Of a DNA stretch of 19,705 bases, positions 2,134 to 19,705 are shown in pieces. Source of the DNA: Clostridia bacterium. Its GTDB lineage: Bacteria; Bacillota; Clostridia; Christensenellales; Aristaeellaceae. The stretch spans positions 1 through 19,705 of the forward strand of contig JAZRWA010000043.1 of assembly GCA_045599485.1 (NCBI GenBank). The letters run 5' to 3'. Both the position numbers and the translations under genes were made by a program. Each line of letters begins with the position of its first letter. The first letter of the stretch is position 1. The notes below the pieces were generated by a model. It saw only the letters and a list, made by a program, of their open reading frames with translations. It searched no databases and was not told the origin of the DNA.

Positions 2134-2179
2134 GGGGGAGAGGGATGCTTCTCGGCTTCGAAAAGCGTACCTCTCCCCC
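2134..2179 (-). other. GC-rich hairpin directly downstream of the M20 gene stop. It could be an RNA-stability element or a weak terminator.
   Basis: gggggagagg (2134-2143) pairs with cctctccccc (2170-2179), and an inner gcttctcg/cgaaaagc helix extends the stem. Only a short U stretch follows on the minus strand. Confidence 0.35.
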
Positions 2180-2189
2180 TGAAAAAACC

Positions 2190-3383: not shown

Positions 3384-3403
3384 GGCAGAGGATTCCTTTC
3401 GTA

Positions 3404-4108: not shown

Positions 4109-5165
4109 CGGCAATTTCCTCCGTAATCACATGGTTTTCGGTCAGGTACGCGATGGCGGCGGCGATGTTTTCGGGCGAACCCTCCAGCAGACCGATCATG
4201 CCGCCAAGAGAGGCCCCCTGCAGGATCTCCACATTGGCCAGAACCACGTTGAAATTGATATCAAATTTGCGGGCTGCCATGGTGATGAGCGGCTCGCCGG
4301 CGCAATCCTTGCGGAAGGTGAGACGGACCAGTTTGCCGTGGGAACCGGTGAACTGGGAATCCTCCTTCAGCACCTTGTCGATGCGGCTGAGCGGGGAAGC
4401 GGAGGCCACAAAACGGGCGGCGATGTCGGTTTGCGGATCGGCAAACACATCGTACACTTCGCCTTCTTCCACCACACGGCCTTTTTCCATGACAGCGACA
4501 CGCTGGCAGATGGACTTGATGACCGCCATCTCATGCGTGATGAGCACAATGGTCAAACCAAGCTTGCGGTTCAGATCCTTGAGCAGCGCCAGAATGGCTT
4601 CGGTCGCTTCGGGGTCAAGAGCGCTGGTGGCCTCGTCGGAAAGCAATACCGCTGGGTTGTTGGCCAAAGCGCGGGCGATGGCGACACGCTGCTTCTGACC
4701 GCCGGAGAGCTGGGAAGGATACACATTGATCTTATCGCTCAGACCGACCAGCTCCAGCAGCTCCCGCACACGGGCGGCGATCTGCTTTTTGCTCATGCCG
4801 GTAAATTTGAGGGGATAGGCGACATTATCAAAAACGGTGGAACGATCCAGCAGGTTGAAATGCTGGAAGATCATGCCGATGCCGCGGCGCAGGGTGTTGA
4901 GCTGCTTTTCTCCCATCGGCTTGCCGCCCTGCATGGCGACACCGTTCTTCATGGTGATCTCGGCGTTGCTGCCTACCTTGAGCGTGCCGCTGTCCGGCAC
5001 TTCAAGCAGGTTGATGCAGCGCACCAGGGTGGATTTTCCGGCACCGGAATAACCGATGACACCGTAAATGGTGCCATCGGCAATGCTGACAGACACATCC
5101 TCCAAAGCACGGACATCGCCCGTCTTGAGGTGGAAGGTCTTGTTCATGTTTTTAATCTCGATCAT
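4092..5165 (-). CDS. metN: Methionine ABC transporter ATP-binding protein with a C-terminal NIL domain. The stop is TAA.
   Basis: Motifs present are Walker A GYSGAGKST, signature LSGGQKQRVAIARAL, Walker B VLLSDEATSALD and H-loop ITHEM. The C-terminal ~100 aa are NIL-like (FDINFNVVLANVEILQGASLGGMIGLLEG). A GGAG lies 7 nt before the ATG. Confidence 0.95.
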   Translation of the reverse strand: MIEIKNMNKTFHLKTGDVRALEDVSVSIADGTIYGVIGYSGAGKSTLVRCINLLEVPDSGTLKVGSNAEITMKNGVAMQGGKPMGEKQLNTLRRGIGMIFQHFNLLDRSTVFDNVAYPLKFTGMSKKQIAARVRELLELVGLSDKINVYPSQLSGGQKQRVAIARALANNPAVLLSDEATSALDPEATEAILALLKDLNRKLGLTIVLITHEMAVIKSICQRVAVMEKGRVVEEGEVYDVFADPQTDIAARFVASASPLSRIDKVLKEDSQFTGSHGKLVRLTFRKDCAGEPLITMAARKFDINFNVVLANVEILQGASLGGMIGLLEGSPENIAAAIAYLTENHVITEEIADGRLH

Positions 5166-5226
5166 GCTGTTGCTCCGTCACGATTTCTTGAGTGAGCCCC
5201 TGGGGGAGTGACCCCGCCGGACCCAT

Positions 5227-5262
5227 GAAAAACCGGTGCCGACGGCTTTGTGTCGGCACCGG
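5227..5262 (-). terminator. Intra-operon intrinsic terminator between metQ and metN
   Basis: On the minus strand, CCGGUGCCGAC (5262-5252) pairs with GUCGGCACCGG (5243-5233) over 11 bp around an 8-nt loop. UUUUUC follows (plus gaaaaa, 5227-5232). Confidence 0.8.
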
Positions 5263-5273
5263 CGCGATCAAAA

Positions 5274-6194
5274 TTACTTCATCAGACCGGCGGCATCCTT
5301 GATGGCGTCGATGGAAGCGTAGTTGTTGCTGTACAGGGTCAGGGGGGCGATCAGGGTATCGGCGATGACGGTCAGGTCATAGCCGAAGGAGGCCATTTCC
5401 TTGGCCAGATAGGCCTTGTGCTGGAAAGCGTTCAGGTCCAGATCCTTGGCAACACGGTTGTTCAGGGCGTCGTTGGGCAGGTTGTAGTTGTCCAGCACGA
5501 CCAGCTCGACATAGATGCCGGCATCTTCCTGATCCAGGATCCACTGCACGGCGGCGAACATATCGTTCTTGGTGCCGCACACACCGACCTTGACAACGGT
5601 CTTGCCGGCGGGGGAGGCCACGTTGTAGTAGTAATCCTTCAGCTCAGCCACCTTGGCGGCGTCCACCACCAGGTTGGGATCCGCTTCGTACTCGAAGGCG
5701 GGATAGTAGGCTTCGTTGTACTCCAGCAGCATGAACTCGGCCACCAGCTGGGTGTGGTAGGCGTCAACGATCTTCTGATAGATCTCGTTTTCGGCATCCT
5801 CGGTGCGGGCCACCAGGATGTTGACGTAGGGGTTCTCGCCGCCTTCAGCCTGCTGTTCCACGATCAGACCATCCTTGGAGGGGATCAGGCCCACGGTGGT
5901 GGCCCAGGTGCCGTTGATGACGGCGCCGGCGTAGTCGCGCAGGGTGGAGGTCAGGGTGTTGGCCGCCACGGGAACCACTTCGATATCGTAGATGTAATTG
6001 GTGATGTCCTTGATCTCGGGGTTGTAACCGGCGGCGGGATCGACCTCGATGAAGCCGGCGGTCTCCAGCAGCTTGATGGCGCGGGCGAGGTTGGTGGCGT
6101 CATCGGGCGCGGCGATCTGCAGGGTCTGGGCAGAAGCGGCAGCGGTGCTCAGGATCAGTACCAGAGCCAGGGCAAGGGTCAGAAAACGCTTCAT
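5274..6194 (-). CDS. metQ: MetQ/NlpA-family methionine-binding protein. Its segment order is circularly permuted and its signal peptide is of the type-I kind. The stop is TAA.
   Basis: The 306-aa product starts with MKRFLTLALALVLILSTAAASAQ. Family motifs occur in the order IAAPDDATNLARA (res ~27-39), NPYVNILVAR (121-130), KVGV (202-205), DLNAFQHKAYL (253-263). A GGAG lies 9 nt before ATG 6194. Confidence 0.85.
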   Translation of the reverse strand: MKRFLTLALALVLILSTAAASAQTLQIAAPDDATNLARAIKLLETAGFIEVDPAAGYNPEIKDITNYIYDIEVVPVAANTLTSTLRDYAGAVINGTWATTVGLIPSKDGLIVEQQAEGGENPYVNILVARTEDAENEIYQKIVDAYHTQLVAEFMLLEYNEAYYPAFEYEADPNLVVDAAKVAELKDYYYNVASPAGKTVVKVGVCGTKNDMFAAVQWILDQEDAGIYVELVVLDNYNLPNDALNNRVAKDLDLNAFQHKAYLAKEMASFGYDLTVIADTLIAPLTLYSNNYASIDAIKDAAGLMK

Positions 6195-6218
6195 GATGTT
6201 TTGCTCCTTTAATATGAT

Positions 6219-6302
6219 TTATCGTTTGGGATGCGCGGTGTGAATGACGGAAAACGGGATGCGGCGCATTCGGTCCGTCGCGCGGCCAAAGTGCTGCTTC
6301 AT
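6219..6302 (-). CDS. Leader sORF2, 27 aa: MKQHFGRATDRMRRIPFSVIHTAHPKR. The stop is TAA, 24 nt before the metQ ATG.
   Basis: GAAAGGAGGAAG is present, with GGAGG (6315-6311) placed 8 nt before ATG 6302. The sORF sits between the leader terminator and metQ. I recognise no homology. Confidence 0.4.
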   Translation of the reverse strand: MKQHFGRATDRMRRIPFSVIHTAHPKR

Positions 6303-6322
6303 CGGGTCTTCCTCCTTTCTTT

Positions 6323-6362
6323 CGTAAAAAATAAGGGATCAGCGTGTGCTGTCCCTTATTTC
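6323..6362 (-). terminator. Strong intrinsic terminator (attenuator) inside the met operon leader
   Basis: The minus-strand RNA reads AAAUAAGGGA-CAGC-ACAC-GCUG-A-UCCCUUAUUU followed by UUUAC. That is about a 14-bp stem with one bulged A and a 4-nt loop, running into a run of U. Confidence 0.8.
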
Positions 6363-6377
6363 AGGAATGCCGGGGTT

Positions 6378-6470
6378 TCAGTTCCGGCAGCAGACACACG
6401 GCAAATAACGGCACATGCACATGTACATGCCCCAACGCATCATCTTGCCGGACGCGGTGCGATTGACCAT
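6378..6470 (-). CDS. Leader sORF1, 30 aa: MVNRTASGKMMRWGMYMCMCRYLPCVCCRN (6 Met, 5 Cys). The stop is TGA.
   Basis: GGAAGGAGG (6487-6479) lies 8 nt before ATG 6470, immediately downstream of a sigma-A-type promoter and immediately upstream of the terminator. Codons 15-20 form the tandem hexamer repeat ATGTAC ATGTGC ATGTGC. Confidence 0.55.
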   Translation of the reverse strand: MVNRTASGKMMRWGMYMCMCRYLPCVCCRN

Positions 6471-6503
6471 GATGTCTGCCTCCTTCCGAAATAAGGTAGA
6501 ATT

Positions 6504-6655: not shown

Positions 6656-7870
6656 ATGAATTTTATTTTTATTTCGCCCCATTTTCCGCGCAGAACGTGG
6701 CAGTTTTGCGAACGGTTGAAGAGAAACGGGGTAACTGTGCTGGGCATCGGCGACGCGCCCTATGACGCGCTGGATCCGAATGTACGGGACAGCCTGAACG
6801 AATACTATTATCTGCCGAGCCTGGAAAACTATGACGCGGTGTACCGGGCGGTGGCGTTCTTTGCGTTCAAATACGGGCGGATCGACTGGATCGAATCCAA
6901 CAACGAGTACTGGCTGTAGCAGGACGCCATGCTTCGAAGTGATTTTAACATTCAAAGCGGTGTGAATGCGAAGGATATCCGCTATTTCAAGAGCAAAGCC
7001 GCCATGAAGGAAAAATATGCTCTGGGACAGATCCCGACCGCCCGCAGCCATGTGATCGAAACGGAAGCGGATACCCGGGAATTTATCACTTCGGTTGGTT
7101 GGCCGGTCATTATCAAACCGGAAAACGGCGTGGGCGCGGCGGACACCTACAAGATCCATAATGAATCGGAGCTGCAGGCGTTTTTTGAAGACCAGCCCGA
7201 GGGGCCCTGCGTGTGCGAGGAGTTCATTGAGGGCGATATCTGCTCCTATGATGCCATCGTGGACAGCCGGGGCGAGCCGCTGTTTGAATCAATGACGGTG
7301 TGGCCGCCTTCCAGTGCCGATATCGTCAACCTCGATCTGGACCTGAGCTATTATGTCAGCCCCACGATGCCGGACAGCCTGCGGACGCTGGGACGGCGTA
7401 CCGTCAAGGCCTTCCATGTGTTCAGCCGCTTCGTTCATCTGGAGTTTTTCAGGTTGACCCATGACCGGGAAGGGCTGGGCAGGCAGGGCGATTTTGTTGC
7501 CCTGGAGGTCAATATGCGCCCCGCGGGCGGCTACACGCCCGATATGATCAACTATGCGCACAGCACCGACGTGTACCGTATCTGGGCGGACATGGTGACC
7601 TTTGATCGCACGGAATGGCAGCCGGCCGACCGGGAATACTGCTGCGCCTACGCGGGGCGAAAGAACAGCAAAAGGTATCTGCTCAGTGATGAGGAAATAT
7701 GGAACCGCTGGGGCGGTAAGATCACAATGTGCGAGGAGATGCCGCCCATGATGGTGCGTACCATGGGCAACAGAATGTACACAGCAAGGCTGGACAGCGT
7801 GGAGGAGGCGCAATGCTTCATCCGCGATGTGCTGAAAACGGAGGGGGACAAGCATGAACCGGAGGAGTAA
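6656..7870 (+). CDS. ATP-grasp domain protein (404 codons) with an in-frame TAG at 6917-6919. The final stop is TAA.
   Basis: Track ORFs 6518-6919 and 6929-7870 share a frame and are separated only by TAG (…IESNNEYWL*QDAMLRSDFNI…). The upstream piece is a pre-ATP-grasp region. The downstream piece is the ATP-grasp fold (WPVIIKPENGVGAADTYKI, EEFIEGDICSYD, ALEVNMRPAGG) and has no SD or start of its own. ATG 6656 was chosen because the TATAAT box lies inside the longer ORF. Confidence 0.8.
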
Positions 7871-8720
7871 TCGGTGGATCGCCCTGCTGCTGGTATTCGT
7901 GCTTTTGCTGCCATGCGGCGGCATCGCGGAGCAGCTGGTGTTTGACAAGGGGAAGGCACCGGATTTTGAGAAAGGAACGCCTACGCTGGACATCCACGTG
8001 GTGCCCATGATCGGCGGCGACTGCCTGATCCTGCGCTGCGACGGACAGGTGATGCTGGTGGACATGGGCAAGGAGAACGAGTACGAGACCATCAAGTCGG
8101 AGTTTGAACGGCTGGGAATTGATAAAGTGGATATCGCCTTCAACAGCCATCCGCATGATGACCATCTGGGCAGCATGATACACATTGCCGAGGACTATCC
8201 GGTGGGGCTGTTCCTGACGGCTTTTGATGAGGATTATGATGACGGCTTCTGCGATCAGGCGGAGACCATTTCATTCCTGCGGGAAAAGAATGTGCCCATC
8301 CGCCGCGTGGGGGATATGGATACCTTTGAATTTGCGTCCTGCCATTGCACGGTGTATCAGATCCTGGATGTTCCCGTCTGCAATTACATGAGCGCGGTGC
8401 TGATGATCGAGTACGGCGAGAGGCGCGTGCTGATGACAGGGGATTTTATTGATGAGGTGCAGCGGGAGCTGGCACAGAGCGGGCATGACATCCGGGCGGA
8501 GATCGTCAAGCATCCGCATCACGGGCTCCAACCCATGTATCATGATTTCATCCGTGCCATCGCCCCTTAGTACGCGATCATCACCCACAACTACAGCTGC
8601 TCCGCGGTGGCGAGGGACCGGCTGAATGATTACCGCATCCGCTATGGCATTGCCGCGTGGGGTCCGCTGCATCTGGCGACGAACGGGGCATACTGGCTGG
8701 TGGATCAGCTGCGCAACTGA
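7854..8720 (+). CDS. Secreted ComEC-type MBL-fold metallo-hydrolase (288 codons) with an in-frame TAG at 8568-8570. The final stop is TGA at 8718-8720.
   Basis: It has the signal-like N-terminus MNRRSNRWIALLLVFVLLLPCGG, then LILRCDGQVMLVDMG, HPHDDHLGS and KHPHHG. After the TAG the same frame continues for 49 codons as YAIITHNYSCSAVARDRLNDYRIRYGIAAWGPLHLATNGAYWLVDQLRN, the usual C-terminal end of this family. GGAGGGGG precedes ATG 7854. Confidence 0.8.
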
Positions 8721-8722
8721 AC

Positions 8723-8751
8723 TTGCCAAGCACGTAAAAAAGCGTTATAAT
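8723..8751 (+). promoter_or_regulatory. Near-consensus sigma-A promoter
   Basis: -35 TTGCCA (8723-8728), a 17-nt spacer, and -10 TATAAT (8746-8751). Confidence 0.7.
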
Positions 8752-8785
8752 ATCACTGTTTTTGTTTGGAAGGGAGGGACACGGA

Positions 8786-9079
8786 ATGAAGGGAAGACTG
8801 CTGTTTGCCCTGGCTTTCTGTGCCCTGATCCTGTTGGGCGTGCGTGCCCTGCCCAAGACAGGCGAGGTCAAAGCGCCGCTGCTGCTTCGGGTATCCAACC
8901 GATGCGCGCCTGCCGCGGCCTTGCCCGAAAGCAGCCCCGAGGTGACCGTTACGGAGGTGCGGGGCGCTGTGCCTGTTACGGCACCGCAGCGGAGCACGGC
9001 CTGTACCATCCCGCAGCTGCGCATGCCCTTCTATCGTATGGCGTACGGTGTGTTCCATCTGCAGGATAAAGCCGGGTAA
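8786..9079 (+). CDS. Small hypothetical secreted or membrane-anchored protein, 97 aa. The stop is TAA.
   Basis: ATG 8786 follows GGAAGGGAGGGA and the promoter above. The N-terminus MKGRLLFALAFCALILLGVRALP looks like a signal peptide. I recognise no family. Confidence 0.5.
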   Translation: MKGRLLFALAFCALILLGVRALPKTGEVKAPLLLRVSNRCAPAAALPESSPEVTVTEVRGAVPVTAPQRSTACTIPQLRMPFYRMAYGVFHLQDKAG

Positions 9080-9135
9080 CGGCGATGCGGTTCCGTAAAA
9101 GCATTTCAATACATTACATGAGGAGAAAAATCAAA

Positions 9136-10440
9136 ATGAAAAACAATGCTGTCAACAAGATCATCAGCATCGTGGTGCTGGTGGCTCTGCTGGGCGCCAC
9201 GGTGTTTGGCGCATATGCCGGCCTGATGGGTCTGAATACCCAGATGGTGACCGTCCGTGAGAATGGCACCGATGTGCAGAAGGCTCTGTACCGCATCGTG
9301 TCGTTCATTCCCAACACCCTGAACAACAGCTGGCAGGAAGTCGTTCAGCCCGATACCACTTTGGGCGGCGGCTACAGCTATGTGCTGACTGCTCCCGACG
9401 GCGTGAAGGCCGAAGACATGAACAAGGCCGCACAGGTGATCCGTGCCCGTGCCGACATGCTGGTCGGCGGTGCCGTGACCAAGGTGGAGGGCAGCACTCT
9501 GACCCTGACCGTGCCCGGCAAGGACTATGACACCTCCATCGCCGCTGTGCTGCAGCCCACCGGTCAGGCGACCTTTGCCCTGTATGACGATGATACCGGC
9601 CTGTTCGGCGACTCTCTGCTGGATGGCAGCATCGCGGACGGCACCTACTACTACCGGGGCGAAAATGGCTACAACATTCAGCTGCACCTGAGTGCGAAGG
9701 GCGCCGCTGCCCTGCGTCAGGTCATTGCCGAACACAGCTTTGAATACCTGTACCTGCTGCTGGATGGCGAACCCGTTGGCTACAGCCCCCTGTATGACGG
9801 CATCATTACCGAAGGCAGCACCGTGGACTTTGCGTCTCCCGATGCCAGCAGTGCTTTTGTGACCGCGGTCACGATGCGCGGCGGCGCCCTGCCCTGCGTG
9901 CTGACGATGATCTCTGATGGTGCGGCGGCGGCGTCCTCCTCCCTGATGAATGTGGGCATCATCGTGTTTGCCTGCCTGCTGCTGCTGGCTTGCGTGTACA
10001 TGATCGCCCGCAGCGTCAAGGCGGGTCTGCTGGGCACCTGGGCGCTCATCGCCGGCGTGGTGCTGGCGGCTCTGCTGAATGCGCTCATCGTGGTGGATAC
10101 CATCTGGGTCGTCACCGTGCTGAGCGGCATCGTGGTGTTCCTGTGCCTGGTTGTGATGGCCGTTAGCGTGGTGATGGTGGTCAATAAGGCTGCCGGCTTC
10201 GTCCGTGCCGGCCGTGAGACCGCTGCCTCCGTTTCTGCCGCCATCGGCAAGAACGGCAAGCTGGTGGCTATGGTGAACGGCATTCTGATGGCCATCGGTC
10301 TTATCCTGATGTTTGCCTTCCAGAGAAACGCCGTGGGCATCATGGGCCGTGTCGTGGCCGCCGATGCGCTGGTGACCCTGGTCATGGTGTTCATTTTCCT
10401 GCCGGTGGTAACCGCCTGCATCAAGTCTCTGCGTAAGTGA
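9136..10440 (+). CDS. SecD-family (protein-export membrane protein) homologue, divergent in its transmembrane core. The stop is TGA.
   Basis: An N-terminal TM is followed by a P1-head-like domain (LGGGYSYVLTAP, VIRARADMLVGG, LTLTVPGKDY, YLYLLLDGEPVGYSPLYDGIITEG, MRGGALPCVL) and five C-terminal TMs. Its position upstream of recJ-relA-dtd matches Firmicute secDF synteny. GAGGAG lies 10 nt before ATG 9136. Confidence 0.7.
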   Translation: MKNNAVNKIISIVVLVALLGATVFGAYAGLMGLNTQMVTVRENGTDVQKALYRIVSFIPNTLNNSWQEVVQPDTTLGGGYSYVLTAPDGVKAEDMNKAAQVIRARADMLVGGAVTKVEGSTLTLTVPGKDYDTSIAAVLQPTGQATFALYDDDTGLFGDSLLDGSIADGTYYYRGENGYNIQLHLSAKGAAALRQVIAEHSFEYLYLLLDGEPVGYSPLYDGIITEGSTVDFASPDASSAFVTAVTMRGGALPCVLTMISDGAAAASSSLMNVGIIVFACLLLLACVYMIARSVKAGLLGTWALIAGVVLAALLNALIVVDTIWVVTVLSGIVVFLCLVVMAVSVVMVVNKAAGFVRAGRETAASVSAAIGKNGKLVAMVNGILMAIGLILMFAFQRNAVGIMGRVVAADALVTLVMVFIFLPVVTACIKSLRK

Positions 10441-10445
10441 TTTTC

Positions 10446-10474
10446 GTTTCCCCGGGGCCGCTCCCCGGGGAAAC
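10446..10474 (+). other. Perfect 12-bp GC-rich hairpin after the SecD-like gene, with no U-tract
   Basis: gtttccccgggg (10446-10457) and ccccggggaaac (10463-10474) pair around the loop ccgct. Confidence 0.6.
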
Positions 10475-10480
10475 CTCTTG

Positions 10481-10517
10481 AGGCAAGGCGTTCGAAAGGG
10501 CGTTTTGCCTTCTTTTC
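10481..10517 (+). terminator. Possible intrinsic terminator
   Basis: aggcaa (10481-10486) pairs with ttgcct (10505-10510) and is followed by tcttttc. The loop is large, so the prediction is weak. Confidence 0.4.
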
Positions 10518-10532
10518 AATCAAAGGAGTTCT

Positions 10533-12785
10533 ATGCAGCAGCTGATTCAAAGAGGAAGAACGGGAAGTATTCCTGGGAGGAAAGATGTTCTGTCCCGGCT
10601 GCTTTTCGCGCGCGGAATCGAAACGCCTGAGGAGGCGCAGCGATTTTTGCATCCCTCGACCGAACAGCTGCTGGATCCTATGACGCTGCCCGGGGCGGCA
10701 CAGGCGGTGGAGATCATTCGCCGCCACATTGCCGATGGCAGCCGCATCACCGTCTACGGCGATTATGATTGCGACGGCGTCTGTGCCACGGCCCTGCTGA
10801 CGGAGATTTTGACGCAGGCGGGGGCCGGGGACGTGCGCAAGTACATCCCCTCCCGCGAGGAGGAAGGCTATGGCCTCAACTGCGCTGCGGTGGAAAAGAT
10901 CGCCACGACCGGCGGACTGCTCATCACCGTGGACTGCGGCATCACCAGCGTGACCGAGACGGCTTTGGCAAAAAGCCTGGGCATGGAGGTCATCATCACC
11001 GATCATCATACCATTCCCGATCCGGTGCCGGAGGCAGATGCCATTGTGCACAGCGCGCTGGAGGGATACGGCTGTCCCTTCCTGTGCGGAGCGGGTACGG
11101 CCTGGAAACTCGGCTGCGCGCTGCTCGGGCACATTGCTTGGGATCAGATCGAACTGGCGGCGCTGGCGACCGTGGCGGATATGGTGCCGCTGCGGGGAGA
11201 AAACCGCGTCATTGCCGCTTTGGGTCTGGAAAAGGCTGCGCACACCGAACGCCCGGGGCTGAAGGCCTTGATGGAAATTTCCAAGGTGCCCTTTGATAAG
11301 CCCATCAGCGGAACGGATACCGGCTTTAAGCTGGGACCGCGGATCAATGCCTGCGGACGGTTAAAATCGGCGGACATTGCCTTTGAAATGCTCACCACGC
11401 AGGATACTGCCGTGGGCAGAGCCCGTGCCGAAGAAGCAAACCGGCTCAACACCGAACGCAAAGACGCGGAAGAAAGCATTCTGCAACAGGCGGAAAGCCA
11501 ATTGCGGCAGCTGAACCTGTGCCGGGAGCAGGCGGTGGTTATTGCGGGCAAGGAGTGGCCCAAGGGCGTGGTGGGGCTGGCGGCCGGACGCATCAGCAAC
11601 AATTATGGCTACCCGACGGTAGCACTGAGCCTGCACGATGGACTGGCGGAGGGCAGTGCCCGTGCCGCCAGCGGGGTGGATATCTATCGGGCCCTGACGG
11701 AGTGCGGCGATATCTTTGTCAAGTTTGGCGGCCATCCGGCGGCAGCGGGCATGACCCTTCGGGAAGAAAATGTGCCGCTGCTGAGGGAGCGGCTCAACGA
11801 AGCCGTACGAAAGCAGCTGAACGGACGGGCGCCCATGCCGGTGCTGGAATATGACTGTGAGCTGCGCCTGAATGAGATCAGCGAAACGCTGATCGAGGAG
11901 CTGGCACAGCTGGAGCCCTGCGGAACGGGCAATCCTTCCCCGGCGTTTTTAATGCAGGACGTCAATGTGATCAAAACAGAGATCATGGGCGCGAAACGCA
12001 GCCATCTGCGCATGACCCTCGAGGAGGACGGACTGCAGATGGGTGCGGTCGCCTTTGGTATGGCGGAGTGGGCAGATCGTTTGGGCGACGGCGCCGGGTT
12101 CATCTGTGTGCCAACAGTCAACAGCTTCCGCGGCAGCAACACGCTGCAGTGCATGGTGCAGGCCATTACGGCAGGCGGTGGCTTTCATCTGACCCGGTCG
12201 ATGGAAGGGGAGCGGATGATCAGGCTGCTCAAGGAACTGTGCCAGGGCCCCGCCATGAAGGCGGACCCGGGGGAACTGCCCGAAACCATAGCCGACCAGG
12301 GCACATTGCTGGTCTGCCATACGGTGGAGACAGCGCGTGCGCTGAAACAGCTGTATCCGCATCTGGATGCGGAAGCGGCATCCATCCCCGATCCGAGAGC
12401 GTACAGCCGTATCTGGCTCTGCGACCGCTTCGAAAAGCAGGGACCGTATGAGCACATCGTGCTGGCGGACGGCGCTGTGGCGCCGGAGGAGATCTTCCGT
12501 CTGCACAGCCTGTATCCCGAGGCGAAGCTGACCGTGCTGCCGCAATCGCAGAACCTGAAGCTGCTGTTGGACAGCCTGCGGCCCACCAAAGATGAAATGA
12601 GAGCGCTCTATGTTGAAATAAAAGAAAACAGGGCGCGTCTGGACACGATGAAAAAGCGCATGGCGGCGGAGATACTGGGTCATATGGGCCTGATCAACGT
12701 GAAATCGCTGACGCTGAAAGAAATAAAAAAAGCCGATCCCGCACAGGACGGCCTGTATCGTTTGTTGAACCCGGAGAGTGATTGA
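10533..12785 (+). CDS. recJ: Single-stranded-DNA-specific exonuclease RecJ. The stop is TGA.
   Basis: DHH motifs DYDCDGV, TVDCGI and ITDHH are present, along with the DHHA1 motif GGHPAAAG. AAGGAG lies 6 nt before the ATG. Confidence 0.95.
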   Translation: MQQLIQRGRTGSIPGRKDVLSRLLFARGIETPEEAQRFLHPSTEQLLDPMTLPGAAQAVEIIRRHIADGSRITVYGDYDCDGVCATALLTEILTQAGAGDVRKYIPSREEEGYGLNCAAVEKIATTGGLLITVDCGITSVTETALAKSLGMEVIITDHHTIPDPVPEADAIVHSALEGYGCPFLCGAGTAWKLGCALLGHIAWDQIELAALATVADMVPLRGENRVIAALGLEKAAHTERPGLKALMEISKVPFDKPISGTDTGFKLGPRINACGRLKSADIAFEMLTTQDTAVGRARAEEANRLNTERKDAEESILQQAESQLRQLNLCREQAVVIAGKEWPKGVVGLAAGRISNNYGYPTVALSLHDGLAEGSARAASGVDIYRALTECGDIFVKFGGHPAAAGMTLREENVPLLRERLNEAVRKQLNGRAPMPVLEYDCELRLNEISETLIEELAQLEPCGTGNPSPAFLMQDVNVIKTEIMGAKRSHLRMTLEEDGLQMGAVAFGMAEWADRLGDGAGFICVPTVNSFRGSNTLQCMVQAITAGGGFHLTRSMEGERMIRLLKELCQGPAMKADPGELPETIADQGTLLVCHTVETARALKQLYPHLDAEAASIPDPRAYSRIWLCDRFEKQGPYEHIVLADGAVAPEEIFRLHSLYPEAKLTVLPQSQNLKLLLDSLRPTKDEMRALYVEIKENRARLDTMKKRMAAEILGHMGLINVKSLTLKEIKKADPAQDGLYRLLNPESD

Positions 12786-12787
12786 AA

Positions 12788-14977
12788 ATGAGTACCGCTT
12801 ATGAATGCATGTCGCTGGAACAAATGGTGGCGCGCATGCGTCACTTTCATCCGAACGCCGATGCCGCGCTGATCGAAAAGGCCTATGCCTTTGCCGAAAA
12901 GGTACACGGCGGTCAGCGCCGTTTGAGCGGCGAACCCTATATTGTGCATCCCGTTTATGTAGCCAGCATCCTGACCGAGATCGGCATTGACGCCCCGACG
13001 GTAGCGGCGGGTCTTTTGCACGACACGGTGGAGGACTGCAAGGATGTGACGCTGGAGACCATCGAGAGCGAATTCGGTCCCGAGGTCGCGCGTCTGGTGG
13101 ACGGCGTGACCAAGCTGAGCAAGCTGGACTTTACCAACCGTGAGGAGCAGCAGGCGGAGACGCTGCGCAAAATGATCCTGGCCATGGGCAAGGATATCCG
13201 TGTGGTGCTGATCAAGCTGGCGGACCGCCTGCACAACATGCGCACCCTCAAATTCAAATCGCCTGAACGGCAGGTGGCCATTGCCCACGAAACGCTGGAT
13301 ATTTATGCGCCGCTGGCGCACCGCCTTGGCGTTTACACCATCAAGGCGGAGCTTTAGGACCTGTCGCTGCGCTACATCGATCCGGAAGGCTATCAGGAAG
13401 TGGCGCGCAAGGTGGGCATGAAGCGGGCTGAACGCGAGGCCAACATCCAGATCGTAATGGAGGAGCTGTCGCAGAAGCTGACGGAGATGGGCATCAAGCA
13501 TGACATCGCCGGCCGCCCCAAGCATTTGTACAGCATTTACCGCAAGATGGTGCTGCATAACAAGCCGTTTGAGCAGATCTACGATCTGATTGCCATCCGC
13601 GTGCTGGTGCGCTCCATTCCCGAATGCTATACCGTGCTGGGCGTGTGCCATACGCTGTGGTCGCAGGTGCCGGGACGCTTCAAGGATTATATCTCGGTGC
13701 CCAAGAACAACATGTATCAGTCGCTGCATACCACGGTGGTGGGCGGCCGCCGCATGCCCTTCCCCTTTGAAATTCAGATCCGTACCTATGAAATGCACCA
13801 TGTGGCGGAATACGGCATCGCCGCGCACTGGCGCTACAAGGAGGGCGGCGGCGCGGAGGACGGCTTTGACAAAAAGCTGTTCTGGCTGCGTCAGATCCTT
13901 GACTGGCAGAACGAGACCCGGGACAGTCAGGAGTTCCTGGACGGCCTGAAGACGGATCTGTTTTCCGAGCAGGTATTTATCTTTACGCCCAAGGGCGACA
14001 TCATCGATATGCCCCGCGGTGCCACCCCGCTGGACTTTGCCTATCGTGTGCACAGCGCCGTGGGCAACAGCTGCGTGGGCGCCAAGATCAACGGCCGCAT
14101 CGTGCCGCTGGATACCCCGCTGGAAACGGGCGACCGCGTGGAGATCATGACCTCCTCCAGCTCCAAAGGCCCCAGCATGGACTGGCTCAAGATCGTTAAA
14201 ACGCAGGCTGCCCGCAGCAAGATCCGCCAGTATTTCCGCAGGGAGCTGCGCGGCGAGAACGTGGAAAAGGGCAAGGATCTGCTGGACCGCGAGGCCAAGC
14301 GCCGCGGACTGGTGCTGGGTTCGCTGCTCAAGGACGAATATGTGCAGCCGCTGCTGCAGCGCTACTGCTTTGCCGATATTGAAGATATTTACGGCGCGGT
14401 GGGCTCCGGCATGGTGGCTTCGGCTTATGTGATCTCCCGACTGTTTGAGGAACAGCACAAGAGTCAGGAGGCGCAGGAAGTCAAGCTGCCGCCTCAGCTG
14501 ACCGAGGAAAAGCAGGCGCAATTGCAGCAGGGTAAGCCCACACAGGGCATTTACGTGGAAGGCGATTCCGGCTTGCTGGTGCGCTTTGCCCGCTGCTGCA
14601 GTCCTGTACCCGGCGATGACATTGTGGGCTATATCACGCGCGGACGCGGTGTGACGGTGCACAAGTGCGACTGCGTCAACGCCAATAACGAGCCGGAACG
14701 TCGGGTCAATGTGTCGTGGGCGCATCAGAATACCGGACGGTTCAATACCACGCTCAGCGTGATCGCCTACGACCACGAGGGGCTGCTGGGCGAAATGACC
14801 GTTTATGTGCAGGATAGCGGTGCCCCCATCAGCGCGGTCAACGTCAAGGTCAATCCCAACAAGACCTGCTCCATCACCATGGTCATTCAGGTCGAGAGCA
14901 GAGAACAGGTGGACGCCGTGCTCCGCCGGCTGCAGAAGCGGCCGGACGTCATCGAGGCGTTCCGCATCGGAGGCTGA
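12788..14977 (+). CDS. relA: Bifunctional (p)ppGpp synthetase/hydrolase Rel (729 codons) with an in-frame TAG at 13355-13357. The final stop is TGA.
   Basis: The HD hydrolase domain (HDTVED) is followed in the same frame after the TAG by the synthetase domain ([22 protein letters not shown]), a TGS domain ([28 protein letters not shown]) and a C-terminal ACT-like domain. The summed length equals a normal long Rel protein. Confidence 0.9.
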
Positions 14978-14979
14978 GT

Positions 14980-15429
14980 ATGCGCGCAGTAGTACAACGT
15001 GTCACCGAGGCATCCGTAAAGGTGAACGGCGAGGTCGTGGGCAGCATCGGTCAGGGGCTGATGGTGCTGCTGGGCGTCAAGACGGGGGATACCGAAAAGG
15101 ACGCCCTGTATATGGCGGACAAAATTCTCAAGCTGCGCATCTTTGAAGATGAGAACGGCAAAATGAACCGTTCGCTGAAAGATATCGGCGGCAGTGTGCT
15201 GTGCGTGAGCCAGTTTACGCTGCTGGGGGACTGCCGCGGTCAGAACCGCCCGGGCTTTACGCAGGCAGAGGCGCCGGAGAGGGCCAACGAGCTGTATGAG
15301 CGTGTCTGTGCCCGCATGCGCGAACAGGATGTGACCGTGGAAACGGGCATTTTCCGGACCGATATGAAGGTGGCGCTGGTCAATGACGGCCCCATCACCA
15401 TTCTGGTGGACAGTGAAAAAACATTTTAA
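14980..15429 (+). CDS. dtd: D-aminoacyl-tRNA deacylase. The stop is TAA.
   Basis: The product is 149 aa with [16 protein letters not shown] and the NRPGF motif. A GGAGG inside the relA 3' end precedes the ATG. Confidence 0.95.
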
Positions 15430-15441
15430 GGAAACACAAAC

Positions 15442-16023
15442 ATGCTGATTGAAAAGCTTTCCCTGGGGGAACTGATGACCAACTGCTATCTGGTAGCCCG
15501 CGATGAAACGAGTCCGCTGGTGGTGATCGATCCCGGGGATGATGCGAGCCGCCTGCGTCAGACCATCGGGCAGCGTCCGGTGGCGGGCGTGCTGATCACG
15601 CACGCTCATTTTGACCATATTCTGGGGCTGGAAGCGCTCACAGGCGCGCCCGTCTATGTGCATGAAGCGGATGCGGAATCGCTGTGCAATGAAACGGCGG
15701 CGGCTGGTTATGGCCGTGTGAACCGTGTGCCGGCGACCGATACCGTGCATGAGGGGGATACGATCTCCCTCGGCGGGCTGGAGTTTACGGTGCTGCATAC
15801 GCCGGGGCATACGCCCGGAAGTGTGTGCTATCAGTGCGGCGATACGCTTTTCAGCGGCGATACATTGTTTGCCACAGGCTGGGGGCGTACCGACCTGCCC
15901 GGCGGTGATGAGGCGGCGATGATGAAATCGCTGCGGCGCCTGCTGCGGCTGCCAGCCAAACTGCGTGTGCTGCCCGGTCATGGTGCCGGCACCACGCTGG
16001 CCTGCATCAGGGGGAAAGAATGA
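15442..16023 (+). CDS. MBL-fold metallo-hydrolase (glyoxalase II-like). The stop is TGA.
   Basis: The THAHFDHILG motif, HTPGHTPGS and a C-terminal PGHG are present. The position after dtd is conserved in Clostridia. Confidence 0.9.
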   Translation: MLIEKLSLGELMTNCYLVARDETSPLVVIDPGDDASRLRQTIGQRPVAGVLITHAHFDHILGLEALTGAPVYVHEADAESLCNETAAAGYGRVNRVPATDTVHEGDTISLGGLEFTVLHTPGHTPGSVCYQCGDTLFSGDTLFATGWGRTDLPGGDEAAMMKSLRRLLRLPAKLRVLPGHGAGTTLACIRGKE

Positions 16024-17477
16024 AAACAGTATCCCTATTTACCGCATAGACGGCGCTTTCCAACGATATGGCGGAGGTGCTGCGCCTGTTTATGGGCAGC
16101 ATTGAGCTGCTTGTCAACGAAGCGGGCGGCGAGATCACCCTGCGCCATGAGGAAAGCATTGCGGACAATGTGCGTACCGTTCGTGTGACGGACGGAGAAC
16201 AGGCAGCGGAGACCCGGGAAGCGATCACCGGGGACGCGGTGGTGGATAAACGGCTGCGTCGCCGTCAGGCCAAGCTGGGGGTATACAGCCTGATGAAGCG
16301 CCGCTTTGGTTATGCTCCGCCGTGGGGCAGCCTGACGGGGATCCGTCCCACCCGGCTGCTGTATGCCGGGCTGGAAAAAGGACTGTCCATGGAGGCGGCG
16401 GCGGACGAGGTGCGGCGTACCTTTGACGTGAGCGAGGAAAAGCTGGCGCTGATGCACGAGATCGTTCAGGTGCAGCAGCGGGAGATTCCGATGCCGGACA
16501 CGGACATGGCGGATATCTATATCGGCATTCCCTTCTGCGTTTCCCGCTGTGCCTACTGCAGCTTTTTATCCGGCGAGGTGGGCAAAGGTACACAGCTGGA
16601 GCCCTATACCGCCGCTCTTGAAAAGGAGATCGCCCGGGGCATTCGTCTGGCGGACGAGGCGGGTTATCGCCTGCGTGCCTTTTATATGGGCGGCGGAACG
16701 CCTACGGCACTGCCGGCATCGCTGCTGGACAGGGTGCTGACCGCGGCGAGACCGCTCATGGAGCGCTGCGGCGAGGTAACGGTGGAAGCGGGACGTCCCG
16801 ATACCATTGACCGGGAAAAGCTGCAGGTGCTGCTTGACCATGGGGTGACCCGCATTTCGGTCAATCCGCAGACGGGACACGACCGCACGCTGGAGAGGAT
16901 CGGTCGGCGTCATACCGTGGCACAGACGGAGCAGGCATACCTGCTGGCACGCGGCATGGGCTTTCATCACATCAATATGGATCTGATCGCCGGCCTGCCC
17001 GGGGAGAACGCCGACGACTTTGAGCAGACGCTGGCATGGATCAAACGTCTGGCACCCGAAAGCATGACGGTGCATACGCTGTCCATCAAGCGCAGCAGCC
17101 TGCTGCATTTGTGGGAGGCGGAGCTGCCCGACGGCGACATGGTCTCGCACATGGTGCGAGCGGGCTATGAAGCGGCGCGAAGCATGGAGATGCAGCCCTA
17201 TTATCTGTATCGCCAGAAGTACATGGCCGGCAATCAGGAAAACGTGGGCTATGCTTTGAAGGATCACAGCTGCATTTACAATGTGGACATGATGGAGGAG
17301 ACCTGCTCGGTGCTGGCCATGGGGGCCGGTGCCGCCAGCAAACGGGTCTCCAATGAAAAAGGCGTCATTCGCCGTGCCTTCAATGTGTCGGATATCCGTC
17401 AATACGTGGAACGTGTGGACGAAATGGCGGAACGCAAGGAAGCGCTGTTTTTGCGCGGAGAGGAAAGCAAATGCTGA
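16020..17477 (+). CDS. hemZ: HemZ-like oxygen-independent coproporphyrinogen dehydrogenase family radical SAM protein (485 codons) with an in-frame TAG at 16047-16049. The final stop is TGA.
   Basis: The radical SAM motif is CVSRCAYCSF, and GGGTPT is also present. The start was placed at ATG 16020, which overlaps the upstream TGA as ATGA and follows AGGGGGA. This restores the roughly 20-aa N-terminus that precedes the conserved LF. The alternative ATG 16068 has no SD. Confidence 0.8.
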
Positions 17478-18187
17478 TCTGGGTTGCCGCGACCTTTTTG
17501 TCTTCCATGGTGAAGGGGCTGTGCGGCTTTGCAAACGCGATCGTATTCAATGCCATGCTGAACTTTGCCAATAACCCGGTGGAGATCTCACCGGTGTGCC
17601 TGCTGATCGGCGCACCCACCAATATGGTGCTCAGCTGGAAGGGACGGAAGCTGATCCGCAAGGAGCTGGTGGCGCTTCCGGTGCTGCTGATCCTGATCGG
17701 CAGCTTTCTTGGCGCCATGGCTTTGAAAAACGGTGATGCGCGTATCATCAAAATGATCTTTGGCTTTTTTATTGCGGCGATGGGCTGCAGTATGCTGCTG
17801 AAACGCAATAAAAAAGAACAGAAAAAGCCGGGGAAGCTTTTTCTGTACGGTGTTGGACTTTTGTCCGGCCTGTTGTGCGGCCTGTATGGCGTCGGGGCGA
17901 TGATGAGCGCGTATTTCAGCCGTGTGACGGAGGATACCGCCAGCTTCAAGGCCAATATGTGCTTTGTGTTTGCGATCGAAAACGTGGTACGGCTGGTGAC
18001 TTATGCGGTATCCGGACTGATGACCGCCGGGGTACTGCTGAAAGGCGCGGTGCTGCTGCCCGTATCGTTCCTGGGACTGGCTGCCGGCATGCTGATGGCA
18101 AAAAAACTGGATGAAAAGAAGGCAAAGCTGCTCATCTATGTGCTGCTGATCATTTCCGGTGTGGTGCTGATCGCACAGAATCTTTAA
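17471..18187 (+). CDS. TauE/SafE (DUF81) family anion/sulfite exporter-like membrane protein. The stop is TAA.
   Basis: The 238-aa product is polytopic and hydrophobic, with two halves joined by a basic loop (KRNKKEQKKPGK). Its ATG overlaps the hemZ 3' end by 7 nt. Confidence 0.8.
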   Translation: MLIWVAATFLSSMVKGLCGFANAIVFNAMLNFANNPVEISPVCLLIGAPTNMVLSWKGRKLIRKELVALPVLLILIGSFLGAMALKNGDARIIKMIFGFFIAAMGCSMLLKRNKKEQKKPGKLFLYGVGLLSGLLCGLYGVGAMMSAYFSRVTEDTASFKANMCFVFAIENVVRLVTYAVSGLMTAGVLLKGAVLLPVSFLGLAAGMLMAKKLDEKKAKLLIYVLLIISGVVLIAQNL

Positions 18188-19014
18188 GTTTCCATGCCGA
18201 TAAACACGGCATTGCGCTCTCCGTAATAGCTGGTCAGGCCGCGCGCCTCGGCGATGCGGCCCTCCGCGGCGGGGAAGCGGCTTCTCAGGGCATCCAGCAC
18301 CGTGCGGGCAAGATCCTCGTTGCAGGTGTGGGTCACCAGCAGCTTTTTGGGCGTCAGCGCCTGTTTTTCCAGCTGACGCAGGATCTCGGCAATGGCGCCC
18401 TTATCGTTGCGGCATTTGGACAGCGGCTGAAGGGTGCCTTCCGCCGACGCCATGCCCATGATGCGGATGCCCAGCACGCCCACGGCGGCGGCGACCGCCT
18501 TGCTGACACGGCCGTTTTGCGCAAAATTATGCAGGGAACGGAAAATAAAGAAGATCCTGGTCTTCTTCATATAGGCTTCCACTTCGGCACAGATGTGCTC
18601 GAACGGAAGCCTTTTTTGTTTCAGCTCGTTGATCTTTTCAACAATGAGCCGCAGGGCGGGGCCGGTCGTCAGCGAATCGAATACATGGATGCGGCAGTTC
18701 GGGTGGGATTCCAGATAGATCTCACGGGCATTCATCGCGGCGTTGTAGGTGCCGGAGATGGTGCCGGTCAGCACGGGCACATAGATCTCGTCTGCCCCCT
18801 CAAAGGCATTCAGCCACAGACCGGTACCGGGGCAGGCGGTGTGGGAGGGCCCCTTGAAAGCAGCCAGGGTATCCAGCATATCGTTGACGTTCAGGTCGGC
18901 GTTGTCTGTCCATTCATTTTCACCGGCGCTGATGGTCAGCGGGACGGAAACAAAATCGGCATTGTCCAGATGCGTGAGATCACAGGAAGAGTCACTGACG
19001 ATGCGTGTAATCAT
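18184..19014 (-). CDS. DegV family fatty-acid-binding protein. The stop is TAA.
   Basis: The N-terminus MITRIVSDSSCDL is typical of DegV, and the 276-aa length is typical too. The track ORF starts at TTG 19032; I preferred ATG 19014, which follows GGAGG (19023-19019). Confidence 0.9.
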   Translation of the reverse strand: MITRIVSDSSCDLTHLDNADFVSVPLTISAGENEWTDNADLNVNDMLDTLAAFKGPSHTACPGTGLWLNAFEGADEIYVPVLTGTISGTYNAAMNAREIYLESHPNCRIHVFDSLTTGPALRLIVEKINELKQKRLPFEHICAEVEAYMKKTRIFFIFRSLHNFAQNGRVSKAVAAAVGVLGIRIMGMASAEGTLQPLSKCRNDKGAIAEILRQLEKQALTPKKLLVTHTCNEDLARTVLDALRSRFPAAEGRIAEARGLTSYYGERNAVFIGMET

Positions 19015-19042
19015 AATGCCTCCATGAAACAAATGCTCAGAG

Positions 19043-19129
19043 TCAAAAACACTTTCATCGGTTTTTGAATAACCGTTGACGGGATTATATCACGGTTTTT
19101 GAAAATTGTAAACAAGCTTTTCAAAAACC
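19043..19129. repeat. Repeated 8-11 bp motif GGTTTTTGAA / TTCAAAAACC in the degV-DUF1836 intergenic region (candidate operators)
   Basis: cggtttttgaa occurs at 19059-19069 and 19093-19103. The inverted copy ttcaaaaacc is at 19120-19129, and a partial inverted copy tcaaaaac is at 19043-19050. Confidence 0.6.
19084..19112 (-). promoter_or_regulatory. Sigma-A-type promoter of degV
   Basis: On the minus strand: -35 TTTACA (19112-19107), a 17-nt spacer, and an extended -10 TGaTATAAT (TATAAT at 19089-19084). Confidence 0.65.
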
Positions 19130-19132
19130 TGT

Positions 19133-19161
19133 TTGCAATGCGGGCGTGGATGTTATACAAT
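19133..19161 (+). promoter_or_regulatory. Sigma-A-type promoter of the DUF1836 gene
   Basis: -35 TTGCAA (19133-19138), a 17-nt spacer, and -10 TACAAT (19156-19161). Confidence 0.6.
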
Positions 19162-19183
19162 AGACCCGTGGAAGGAGCATTGT

Positions 19184-19705
19184 ATGAACGAAGCATTTGA
19201 AAGCCGCCTGCGGCAGACGGTGGAGGGGTTTCATCTGCCGCGCTATACGGAGATCCCCGATATCGGTCTATATCTGGAGCAGGCGGTGCGCTGGATCAAC
19301 CGTTACACCCCCATTTTTTCCGAAAATGAGGTTACGGCCAGTATGATCTCCAATTATGTCAAGCACCATATCATTCCGGGCCCCAAGGGCAAAACCTACA
19401 GCCGGGACGCGCTGGGGCACCTTCTGTTTGTCTGTCTGATGAAGACCACCATGCCCCTGGAAGAGGTTCGCTTCATGTTTCGCATGCAGCAGCGCAGCTA
19501 TGAGCTTCGGGTGGCGTATGATTATTTTTGCGAGGAATTTGAAAATCTGCTGGCCGTTGCCTTTGGTCTGAAACAGCAGCCCGACCCGGTGGGGCATGAC
19601 AGCACGGTGGAAAAGGAGCTGCTGCGTTCGGCACTGCTTTCGGCGGCATATCACATCCGTCTGCAGCAGTATATCCGGCTTCTCAAAGAGAGTGCGGAGT
19701 CGTAA
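19184..19705 (+). CDS. DUF1836 domain protein, commonly paired with degV. The stop is TAA at the window end.
   Basis: ATG 19184 follows GGAAGGAG, and the promoter lies inside the longer track ORF. The 173-aa product contains FHLPRYTEIPDIGLYLEQ and TASMISNYVKH, which I recall as DUF1836-like. Confidence 0.75.
   Translation: MNEAFESRLRQTVEGFHLPRYTEIPDIGLYLEQAVRWINRYTPIFSENEVTASMISNYVKHHIIPGPKGKTYSRDALGHLLFVCLMKTTMPLEEVRFMFRMQQRSYELRVAYDYFCEEFENLLAVAFGLKQQPDPVGHDSTVEKELLRSALLSAAYHIRLQQYIRLLKESAES

Follow-up and report, generated by a model that had tools for sequence, protein, structure and literature searches.

A probable change of TAG from terminator to rare sense codon, most probably for glutamate, in an uncultured genus of Christensenellales-like Clostridia

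Genes with in-frame TAG codons and their neighbourhood

The first 19,705 nucleotides of contig JAZRWA010000043.1 of a Clostridia bacterium (Christensenellales, Aristaeellaceae; assembly GCA_045599485.1), designated here as the window, carry four genes with a single in-frame TAG each. They code for an ATP-grasp enzyme, a secreted protein of the metallo-beta-lactamase (MBL) fold designated as MBL1, the bifunctional (p)ppGpp synthetase/hydrolase Rel, and a HemZ-like radical SAM protein. It is likely that in the genus represented by this DNA, an uncultured one of Christensenellales-like Clostridia, TAG has ceased to terminate translation and serves as a rare sense codon, most probably for glutamate. 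All four TAG codons had been noted in the initial annotation of the window and were confirmed. The genes and the codons are located as follows:

6656-7870, forward strand: ATP-grasp enzyme (Pfam ATP-grasp_3/4), 404 amino acids (aa) when read through TAG, ends with TAA
6917-6919, forward strand: TAG, codon 88 of the ATP-grasp gene; a related species, designated below as species B, has CAG
7854-8720, forward strand: MBL1, secreted ComEC-like MBL-fold protein (Lactamase_B, Pfam PF00753), 288 aa when read through, ends with TGA at 8718-8720
8568-8570, forward strand: TAG, codon 239 of MBL1; sister genomes have CAG
12788-14977, forward strand: Rel, 729-730 aa when read through, ends with TGA
13355-13357, forward strand: TAG, codon 190 of Rel, at the second Glu of the AELEDL motif of relatives; species B has GAG
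16020-17477, forward strand: HemZ-like radical SAM protein (Pfam Radical_SAM), 485 aa when read through, ends with TGA
16047-16049, forward strand: TAG, codon 10 of the HemZ-like gene, in a variable column; the sister contig L001 has CAG

In each gene, the translation continues behind TAG in the same protein family and to full length, as had been proposed. The read-through ATP-grasp protein is collinear with 118 full-length homologues, and the sister protein P0001 is also 404 aa long, uninterrupted, and 90% identical to it. Residues 84-284 of MBL1 align with solved ComEC beta-lactamase-like domains and span the TAG at residue 239; the sister orthologue has 286 aa and is uninterrupted. Rel is collinear with Rel of about 160 related loci when read through, and its aa identity to Rel of L001 is 98% on each side of TAG. 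The HemZ-like protein is 92% identical to the L001 orthologue. Its ATG overlaps the stop of the previous gene as ATGA, and the nine codons before TAG encode the N-terminus MKTVSLFTA, conserved among orthologues. Two details of the earlier gene models were changed. Behind TAG, MBL1 continues for 49 codons to its TGA and not as the open reading frame (ORF) 8626-9069, a non-coding one in a different frame, and the piece upstream of TAG in the HemZ-like gene consists of the nine codons mentioned above and not of a separate long ORF. The window contains 4 TAG against 425 GAG and GAA codons.

Sixteen genes were accepted in the window according to their translations and Pfam matches; the six-frame ORF list holds many antisense shadows. 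Besides the four genes above, the window codes for:

12-1796, forward strand: PPDK, C-terminal part
2190-3383, reverse strand: M20 peptidase
3404-4114, reverse strand: MetI
4092-5165, reverse strand: MetN
5274-6194, reverse strand: MetQ
9085-10440, forward strand: membrane protein
10533-12785, forward strand: RecJ
14980-15429, forward strand: Dtd
15442-16023, forward strand: MBL hydrolase (MBL2)
17471-18187, forward strand: TauE
18184-19032, reverse strand: DegV
19133-19705, forward strand: DUF1836

The window is bacterial chromosomal DNA with G+C content of 0.52-0.62. The gene order RecJ-Rel-Dtd-MBL-HemZ is common to loci of relatives where several of these genes co-occur, and since this order is kept, the window and the other contigs of the genus were recognized as bacterial chromosome. 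Nine genes of the window end with TAA, seven with TGA, and none with TAG. The absence of TAG ends had been noticed before, but on 19 ORF ends (11 TAA and 8 TGA), a count that had to be reduced to the 16 genes. Neither in-frame TAA or TGA nor a frameshift was seen in the 16 corrected genes, in agreement with the initial annotation. In the window alone, 0 of 16 TAG stops is not significant, and the weight comes from the sister genomes.

The forward-strand ORFs 2145-6494 and 18328-19068 were rejected as antisense shadows in high-G+C DNA because the real genes there (M20 peptidase, metNIQ transporter, and DegV) are on the reverse strand; the translations of these ORFs are Gly/Ala/His/Gln-rich nonsense. 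The forward-strand ORF 8626-9069 is a shadow of the same composition and lies mostly in the gap between MBL1 and the membrane-protein gene (8721-9084, 364 bp). No tRNA or Rfam match was found in this gap, and the equivalent gap in the species B contigs L081, L166, and L167 has a called ORF of 97 aa without Pfam match. PPDK of the window shares 87-93% identity with annotated PPDKs of Lachnospiraceae (Acetatifactor, Eubacterium), while the neighbour genes are 45-80% identical even within the order; the pattern is one of extreme conservation or horizontal transfer. As a probe for the genus PPDK is too conserved, although two of its matches, P0123 and P0124, nonetheless led to the species designated below as species C. 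The two top PPDK matches, P0121 (1,030 aa) and P0122 (985 aa), have an internal duplication of about 150 residues in the PEP (phosphoenolpyruvate)-utilizer region; they probably do not exist as such but arose by chimeric assembly of two strains.

TAG codons in sister genomes and in the outgroup

Relatives were found by comparison of the C-terminal part of Rel with one genome per GTDB species, and then by protein searches and contig look-ups. L001 is the contig JAKSQG010000059.1 of the metagenome-assembled genome (MAG) Clostridia bacterium Horse_feces223 (GCA_024404275.1), and its DNA is 87.6% identical to window positions 12821-19699. It is conspecific with L167 (Logan SRR27361835). Species B further comprises L081 and L082 (ENA ERZ27247129, Logan ERR6929691) and L166, a second Horse_feces223 contig from NCBI. 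Identity to L081 is 97.6% for L166 and 95.9% for L167, and these species B contigs are 88.5-89.5% identical to the window. Species C is represented by a 41-kb contig of ENA ERZ27234651, of which 37 kb were read as L163, L164, and L168, and by L165 and L169 (ERZ27234656) with 98.6-98.8% identity. Its PPDK DNA is 90% identical to that of the window. L170 (ENA) is 87% identical to species C and was counted as the fourth species-level lineage. A scan of a metagenome collection with Rel gave no genus-level contig, the best match being 79% identical, and a search with RecN gave no further member of the genus.

In about 25,000 codons of the four lineages, there are 16 in-frame TAG, no TGA, and one TAA. 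The sequences with these TAGs were assembled by three pipelines (NCBI MAG, ENA MEGAHIT, Logan) from five or more samples. TAG makes about 0.07% of codons in the genus and about 1% of putative Glu codons. Outside the window sequence itself, TAG was found in the following genes (coordinates are those of the equivalent window codons unless another contig is named):

18439-18441, reverse strand: DegV codon 198, GAA in the window and TAG in L001
18358-18360, reverse strand: DegV codon 225, GCG in the window and TAG in L001
19250-19252, forward strand: DUF1836 codon 40, GAG in the window and TAG in L001
11139-11141, forward strand: RecJ codon 203, TGG in the window and in L167, TAG in L081, with which L167 is conspecific
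14123-14125, forward strand: Rel codon 446, GAA in the window, TAG in L167, and GAG in the conspecific L001
Species C: RecN codon 210, RluD-like pseudouridine synthase codon 166, and LivM codon 185
Species C: three TAGs in a giant Big_2/LRR surface protein
L170 914-1276, reverse strand: YjbR-family gene split by TAG at codon 30

The initial annotation had concluded that this organism reads TAG through, and the in-frame TAGs that sister genomes have in conserved genes of their own support it. It had named no amino acid for TAG, for which the alignments given below indicate Glu. The same annotation had regarded sense codons in sister genomes as a sign of consensus error. Such codons were found (GAG or CAG at the four window sites), yet the sisters bear TAGs elsewhere; consensus error cannot yield TAGs of sisters at other positions, while sense reading across the lineage predicts them. 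Two samples have the same LivM TAG, and their contigs differ at 1.4% of bases, with 62 mismatches over 5.5 kb; a second contig likewise has the split RecN product (P0513). At least some of the TAGs are thus inherited and were independently assembled. Standard annotation with code 11 calls Rel, RecN, RecJ, LivM, and DegV as fragments in these MAGs.

The giant secreted repeat protein of species C (about 2,665 aa, Big_2/LRR_5) is coded on the reverse strand of L163 at 14328-22322. Its TAGs were considered as terminators of tandem paralogues, and this was rejected, as each is in the middle of a repeat module and aligned with D/E of sister repeats, with no start or ribosome-binding site after it. 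The same gene has an in-frame TAA at 20487-20489, also in the middle of a repeat module, which aligns with Tyr of WERTY; the next piece begins four codons on and has no signal peptide. This TAA is the sole non-TAG internal stop seen in the genus and looks like a recent nonsense mutation or a gene split. No frameshifts were seen in aligned orthologues.

A simple codon-usage gene caller with TAG as sense was run on the genus and on 157 outgroup loci (611,080 codons). In the genus, the caller places TAGs deep within coding sequence. In the outgroup, it flagged 35 TAGs, and for 29 of these a Shine-Dalgarno-like motif and a start codon lie no more than 25 codons downstream. The flagged TAGs were rejected as evidence of a wider recoding: by inspection or by the automatic test, the apparently internal TAGs of the outgroup mostly look like gene junctions, with ordinary terminators between neighbours in the same frame. 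One of the other six is convincing. It is in Rel of L103 (ERZ842401 NODE_53274, 2,623 bp, 2.65x coverage), at a position equivalent to window 13913-13915, where 152 of 161 sequences have Glu. Rel of L103 is 70% identical, and the closest relative of this contig, L018 (92% nucleotide identity), is without the TAG. This TAG may be an error of sequencing, or it may hint at TAG-to-Glu suppression outside the genus. In-frame TAGs are thus a trait of four lineages of one genus, with one isolated candidate (L103) in the 157 outgroup loci.

The gene ends of the genus are 26 TAA and 24 TGA, plus eight more TAA or TGA in L168, so that TAG terminates none of about 58 genes. Gene ends of the outgroup were binned by identity of Rel to that of the window:

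76-83% Rel identity: 8 of 229 genes terminated by TAG (3.5%)
66-76% Rel identity: 81 of 907 genes terminated by TAG (8.9%)
Below 66% Rel identity: 23 of 209 genes terminated by TAG (11%)

The nearest standard-code clade, with 76-83% Rel identity, includes the loci L002-L012, L050, and L083-L096. The falling use of TAG stops toward the genus matches the prediction of codon capture.

When Rel of the window was compared with that of species B (L001), 45 synonymous and 3 non-synonymous differences were counted upstream of TAG, and 113 and 8, respectively, downstream. In the ATP-grasp gene compared with L081, there are 70 synonymous and 36 non-synonymous differences downstream of TAG. As synonymous differences greatly exceed the non-synonymous ones on both sides, the genes are translated through TAG. 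The bases flanking the four window TAGs had been described as having no shared motif, and none was found in 30 bases on each side of the TAGs. Without such common context, local recoding by an element like SECIS or PYLIS is improbable, and a local recoding signal was rejected.

Amino acid assignment and alternative explanations

It is highly probable that TAG is translated as sense in this genus, and its clean reassignment to Glu is the favoured, if less firm, assignment. The alignment columns in which the TAGs are located have the following composition in relatives:

Rel190: Glu in 153 of 153 outgroup loci
RecN210: Glu in 119 of 119
ATP-grasp88: Glu in 100 of 118 (Gly 11, Ala 4, Gln 2)
DegV198: Glu in 48 of 123, which is the plurality
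Rel446: Glu in 74 and Gln in 41 of 159; TAG (L167) and GAG (L001) within species B
Two TAGs of the giant protein: D/E and E in paralogous repeats
DegV225: Gly in 84 of 123; the loop is divergent in this genus
HemZ10 and RecJ203: variable

As judged by the aligned sequences, TAG at conserved columns falls on Glu. In a Codetta-type likelihood over 7 columns, computed with heavy pseudocounts and effective depth capped at 30, Glu leads every other residue by more than 4.7 log10 units and Gln by about 6.

Elsewhere, TAG has most often been reassigned to glutamine, as in code 15, and Gln could be inserted by a tRNA-Gln(CUA) or by the near-cognate tRNA-Gln(CUG) with G36-U wobble once release factor 1 (RF1) is gone. 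CAG changes to TAG by a single transition, and the nearest relative has CAG at ATP-grasp88, MBL1-239, and HemZ10. However, if TAG were Gln, TAGs should gather on Gln columns, and synonymous CAG-to-TAG changes there would be expected to dominate, which they do not. TAG is found instead on two invariant Glu columns, which favours Glu. Gln was counted 0, 0, and 2 times in the columns of Rel190, RecN210, and ATP-grasp88 (the last 85% Glu), TAG pairs with GAG at Rel446 within one species, and the likelihood of Gln is below that of Glu by the margin given above. Glutamine is therefore an unlikely assignment. The three TAG/CAG pairs can be explained by single transitions, with TAG as a Glu codon and with Gln tolerated at these positions. 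At ATP-grasp88, where the family has Glu, species B a rare Gln, and the window TAG, one reading is that an ancestral TAG changed to CAG in species B.

Pyrrolysine (Pyl) read genome-wide through pylTSBCD would make this genus a bacterial counterpart of the archaeal code 34, in which all TAGs are Pyl. The Pyl system is the only natural UAG-decoding system known in bacteria, some Firmicutes included, and archaea with such reading have been described. Nevertheless, the TAG sites are on invariant or majority Glu columns and not on Lys/Arg-like or unconstrained ones, there is no hint of methylamine metabolism on the contigs, and the authors of code 34 state that the code was not observed in bacteria. 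This explanation is very improbable. The contigs read have none of pylS, pylT, and pylBCD, and their TAGs are in housekeeping genes unrelated to methylamine methyltransferases. Even closer to refutation is the explanation that the TAGs are untranslated, either as sequencing or assembly errors or as nonsense mutations of genes in decay. In favour of it, the sequences were all assembled from short metagenome reads, one in-frame TAA occurs in the giant gene of species C, and L103 is a low-coverage contig. Errors or decay do not agree with 16 TAG, no TGA, and one TAA in the samples and pipelines listed above, with one TAG identical in two samples, with the excess of synonymous differences on both sides of TAGs, with the absence of frameshifts and of a shared context suggesting a systematic miscall, or with the single candidate in 611,080 outgroup codons of the same kind of data. 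Both artefacts and pseudogenes can practically be dismissed as explanations.

Several observations weigh against clean reassignment to Glu, and some of them speak for ambiguous or partial decoding. In that case, RF1 would compete with a suppressor tRNA, possibly borne by a mobile element, or near-cognate tRNAs would insert a mix of Glu, Gln, Trp, or other residues, and the TAGs would be tolerated, slightly deleterious polymorphisms. Among nine sites comparable across species or strains, no TAG is shared between species, and the TAG codons are therefore young or mildly deleterious. The codons of the nearest relatives at nine TAG sites are mixed: four are GAG or GAA, and the five others are CAG (three), TGG, and GCG. 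In the column of MBL1-239, species B and two solved ComEC structures have Gln, which speaks for that residue. TAG is very rare (0.07% of codons) and is absent from the highly expressed PPDK gene in the genus. Compared with 3.5% in the nearest clade, 0 of about 58 TAG stops gives P of about 0.13, which is not significant and leaves room for residual use of TAG as stop or for ambiguous decoding; the isolated TAG at a Glu column of the distant relative L103 is in line with the latter. On the side of the translation machinery, glutamyl-tRNA synthetase (GluRS) normally reads C36, and a Glu-tRNA(CUA) calls for explanation. ARAGORN and Rfam searches found no tRNA or RNA family on any of the analysed contigs of the genus. 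The first 163 loci were scanned for GGQ, the motif of class-I release factors, and gave no release-factor gene, and the later loci have no called gene with a release-factor Pfam family. Finally, all sequences are metagenome assemblies. Against ambiguous decoding are TAGs in genes for which termination of even 50% should be costly (Rel, RecN, RecJ, and LivM), one TAG stably inherited across strains, and the absence of a TAG terminator so far in about 58 genes. It was considered about as improbable as glutamine, and reassignment of TAG to Glu is preferred.

Proposed history, significance, and relation to known codes

If TAG is reassigned to Glu, the bacterial UGA codes suggest by analogy that a CUA-anticodon tRNA would be charged with Glu and that RF1 would be lost or disabled, with release factor 2 (RF2) alone terminating at TAA and TGA. 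A suppressor tRNA and loss of RF1 had been among the causes proposed in the initial annotation. Such a tRNA may have originated from tRNA-Glu, or from a tRNA-Gln-like species charged by a non-discriminating GluRS and left unamidated. Clostridia usually make Gln-tRNA via the GluRS/GatCAB route, so, speculatively, a tRNA-Gln-derived CUA species that escapes amidation would also deliver Glu. The history would be one of codon capture, in which TAG stops, already rare in the nearest relatives, disappeared, and TAG codons may now re-enter genes by point mutation, mainly from GAG and CAG. The rarity of TAG, its absence from PPDK, and the lack of sites shared between species agree with a reassignment of recent date, or with TAG codons to which a slight disadvantage still attaches.

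Most likely, UAG as Glu is a new variant of the bacterial genetic code that is restricted to a single genus of uncultured Christensenellales-like Clostridia of the gut. This genus would probably be the first natural bacterial lineage with UAG reassigned genome-wide to a standard amino acid (glutamate) and with RF1 dispensable. The code would probably be an early-stage one, with TAG in about 1% of Glu codons and turnover of TAG sites between species, and would have arisen by codon capture in a GC-rich, non-reduced genome of gut Clostridia. According to Shulgina and Eddy, UGA is the codon concerned in all stop reassignments known from bacteria. Kivenson et al. (preprint, 10.1101/2024.09.30.615893) did not observe the code with TAG as Pyl in bacteria, which otherwise read TAG as stop. 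A 2026 preprint in which about 2.7 million assemblies were screened lists known and suspected bacterial reassignments, none with TAG, and a 2026 paper on UGA as Trp in Eggerthellaceae gives the same picture. The cases of UAG reassignment in the literature searched are all from phages, eukaryotes, or organelles, besides archaea with UAG as pyrrolysine. Targeted literature searches up to 2026 found no TAG reassignment for Christensenellales or other bacteria, and the remark in the initial annotation that amber recoding is undescribed for a Clostridia-like bacterium agrees with them.

If true, the reassignment would be a natural counterpart of the engineered, RF1-deleted and amber-free Escherichia coli strains, and loss of RF1 would be evolutionarily accessible. 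A young reassignment would allow the order of events (codon depletion, tRNA change, and release-factor loss) to be studied, and the genus would be a possible source of a natural amber-decoding tRNA and its charging enzyme. Fragmentation of genes under code 11 can distort downstream uses, e.g., protein databases. TAG-recoded phages are common in gut ecosystems, so the finding has a bearing on phage-host biology.

Among known systems, the bacterial UGA codes are similar in that a stop codon became a sense codon across a monophyletic bacterial clade, as is likely here. These are code 4, with UGA as Trp (Mycoplasmatales, insect endosymbionts, and Eggerthellaceae MAGs), and code 25, with UGA as Gly (Gracilibacteria and Absconditabacteria). 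The evidence is also alike, with in-frame stops in conserved genes, no such terminators (in the genus, among about 58 gene ends), and reduced use of the stop in the nearest standard-code relatives. Bacteria that reassigned UGA have lost RF2 and acquired a tRNA(UCA) (2026 Eggerthellaceae paper). In contrast, the codon here is UAG, so RF1 and not RF2 would be dispensable; the residue is more probably Glu, and the change of tRNA and the loss of release factor are proposed here by analogy. The genome of the genus is GC-rich (0.56-0.63), with no sign of reduction.

The archaeal code 34 is also one of a prokaryote with genome-wide internal TAGs in ordinary genes and, as would apply here, only two stop codons, and numbers of TAG codons were read there as a clock since the switch (10.1101/2024.09.30.615893). 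It differs from the present case by its archaeal hosts, Pyl machinery, and methylamine methanogenesis, whereas the TAGs here are on Glu columns. Amber is a sense codon also in code 15, with TAG as Gln, of crAss-like and Lak gut phages, which carry suppressor tRNAs, and in ciliates and green algae with TAA and TAG as Gln. Code 15 was detected in a similar way, by in-frame TAG and better gene models with TAG as sense. Those codes belong to phages and eukaryotic nuclei, while a bacterial chromosome with housekeeping genes in conserved synteny is concerned here, and Glu is preferred over Gln by about 6 log10 units.

Codes with TAA and TAG as Glu are those of peritrich ciliates (code 30) and Blastocrithidia (code 31), with tRNA-Glu of mutated anticodons. 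The assignment of UAG to Glu is the same as that proposed for the genus. In these eukaryotes, UAA was reassigned jointly and eRF1 terminates, whereas in the genus, with its bacterial RF1/RF2 system, TAA is the commonest terminator (26 of 50 counted ends).

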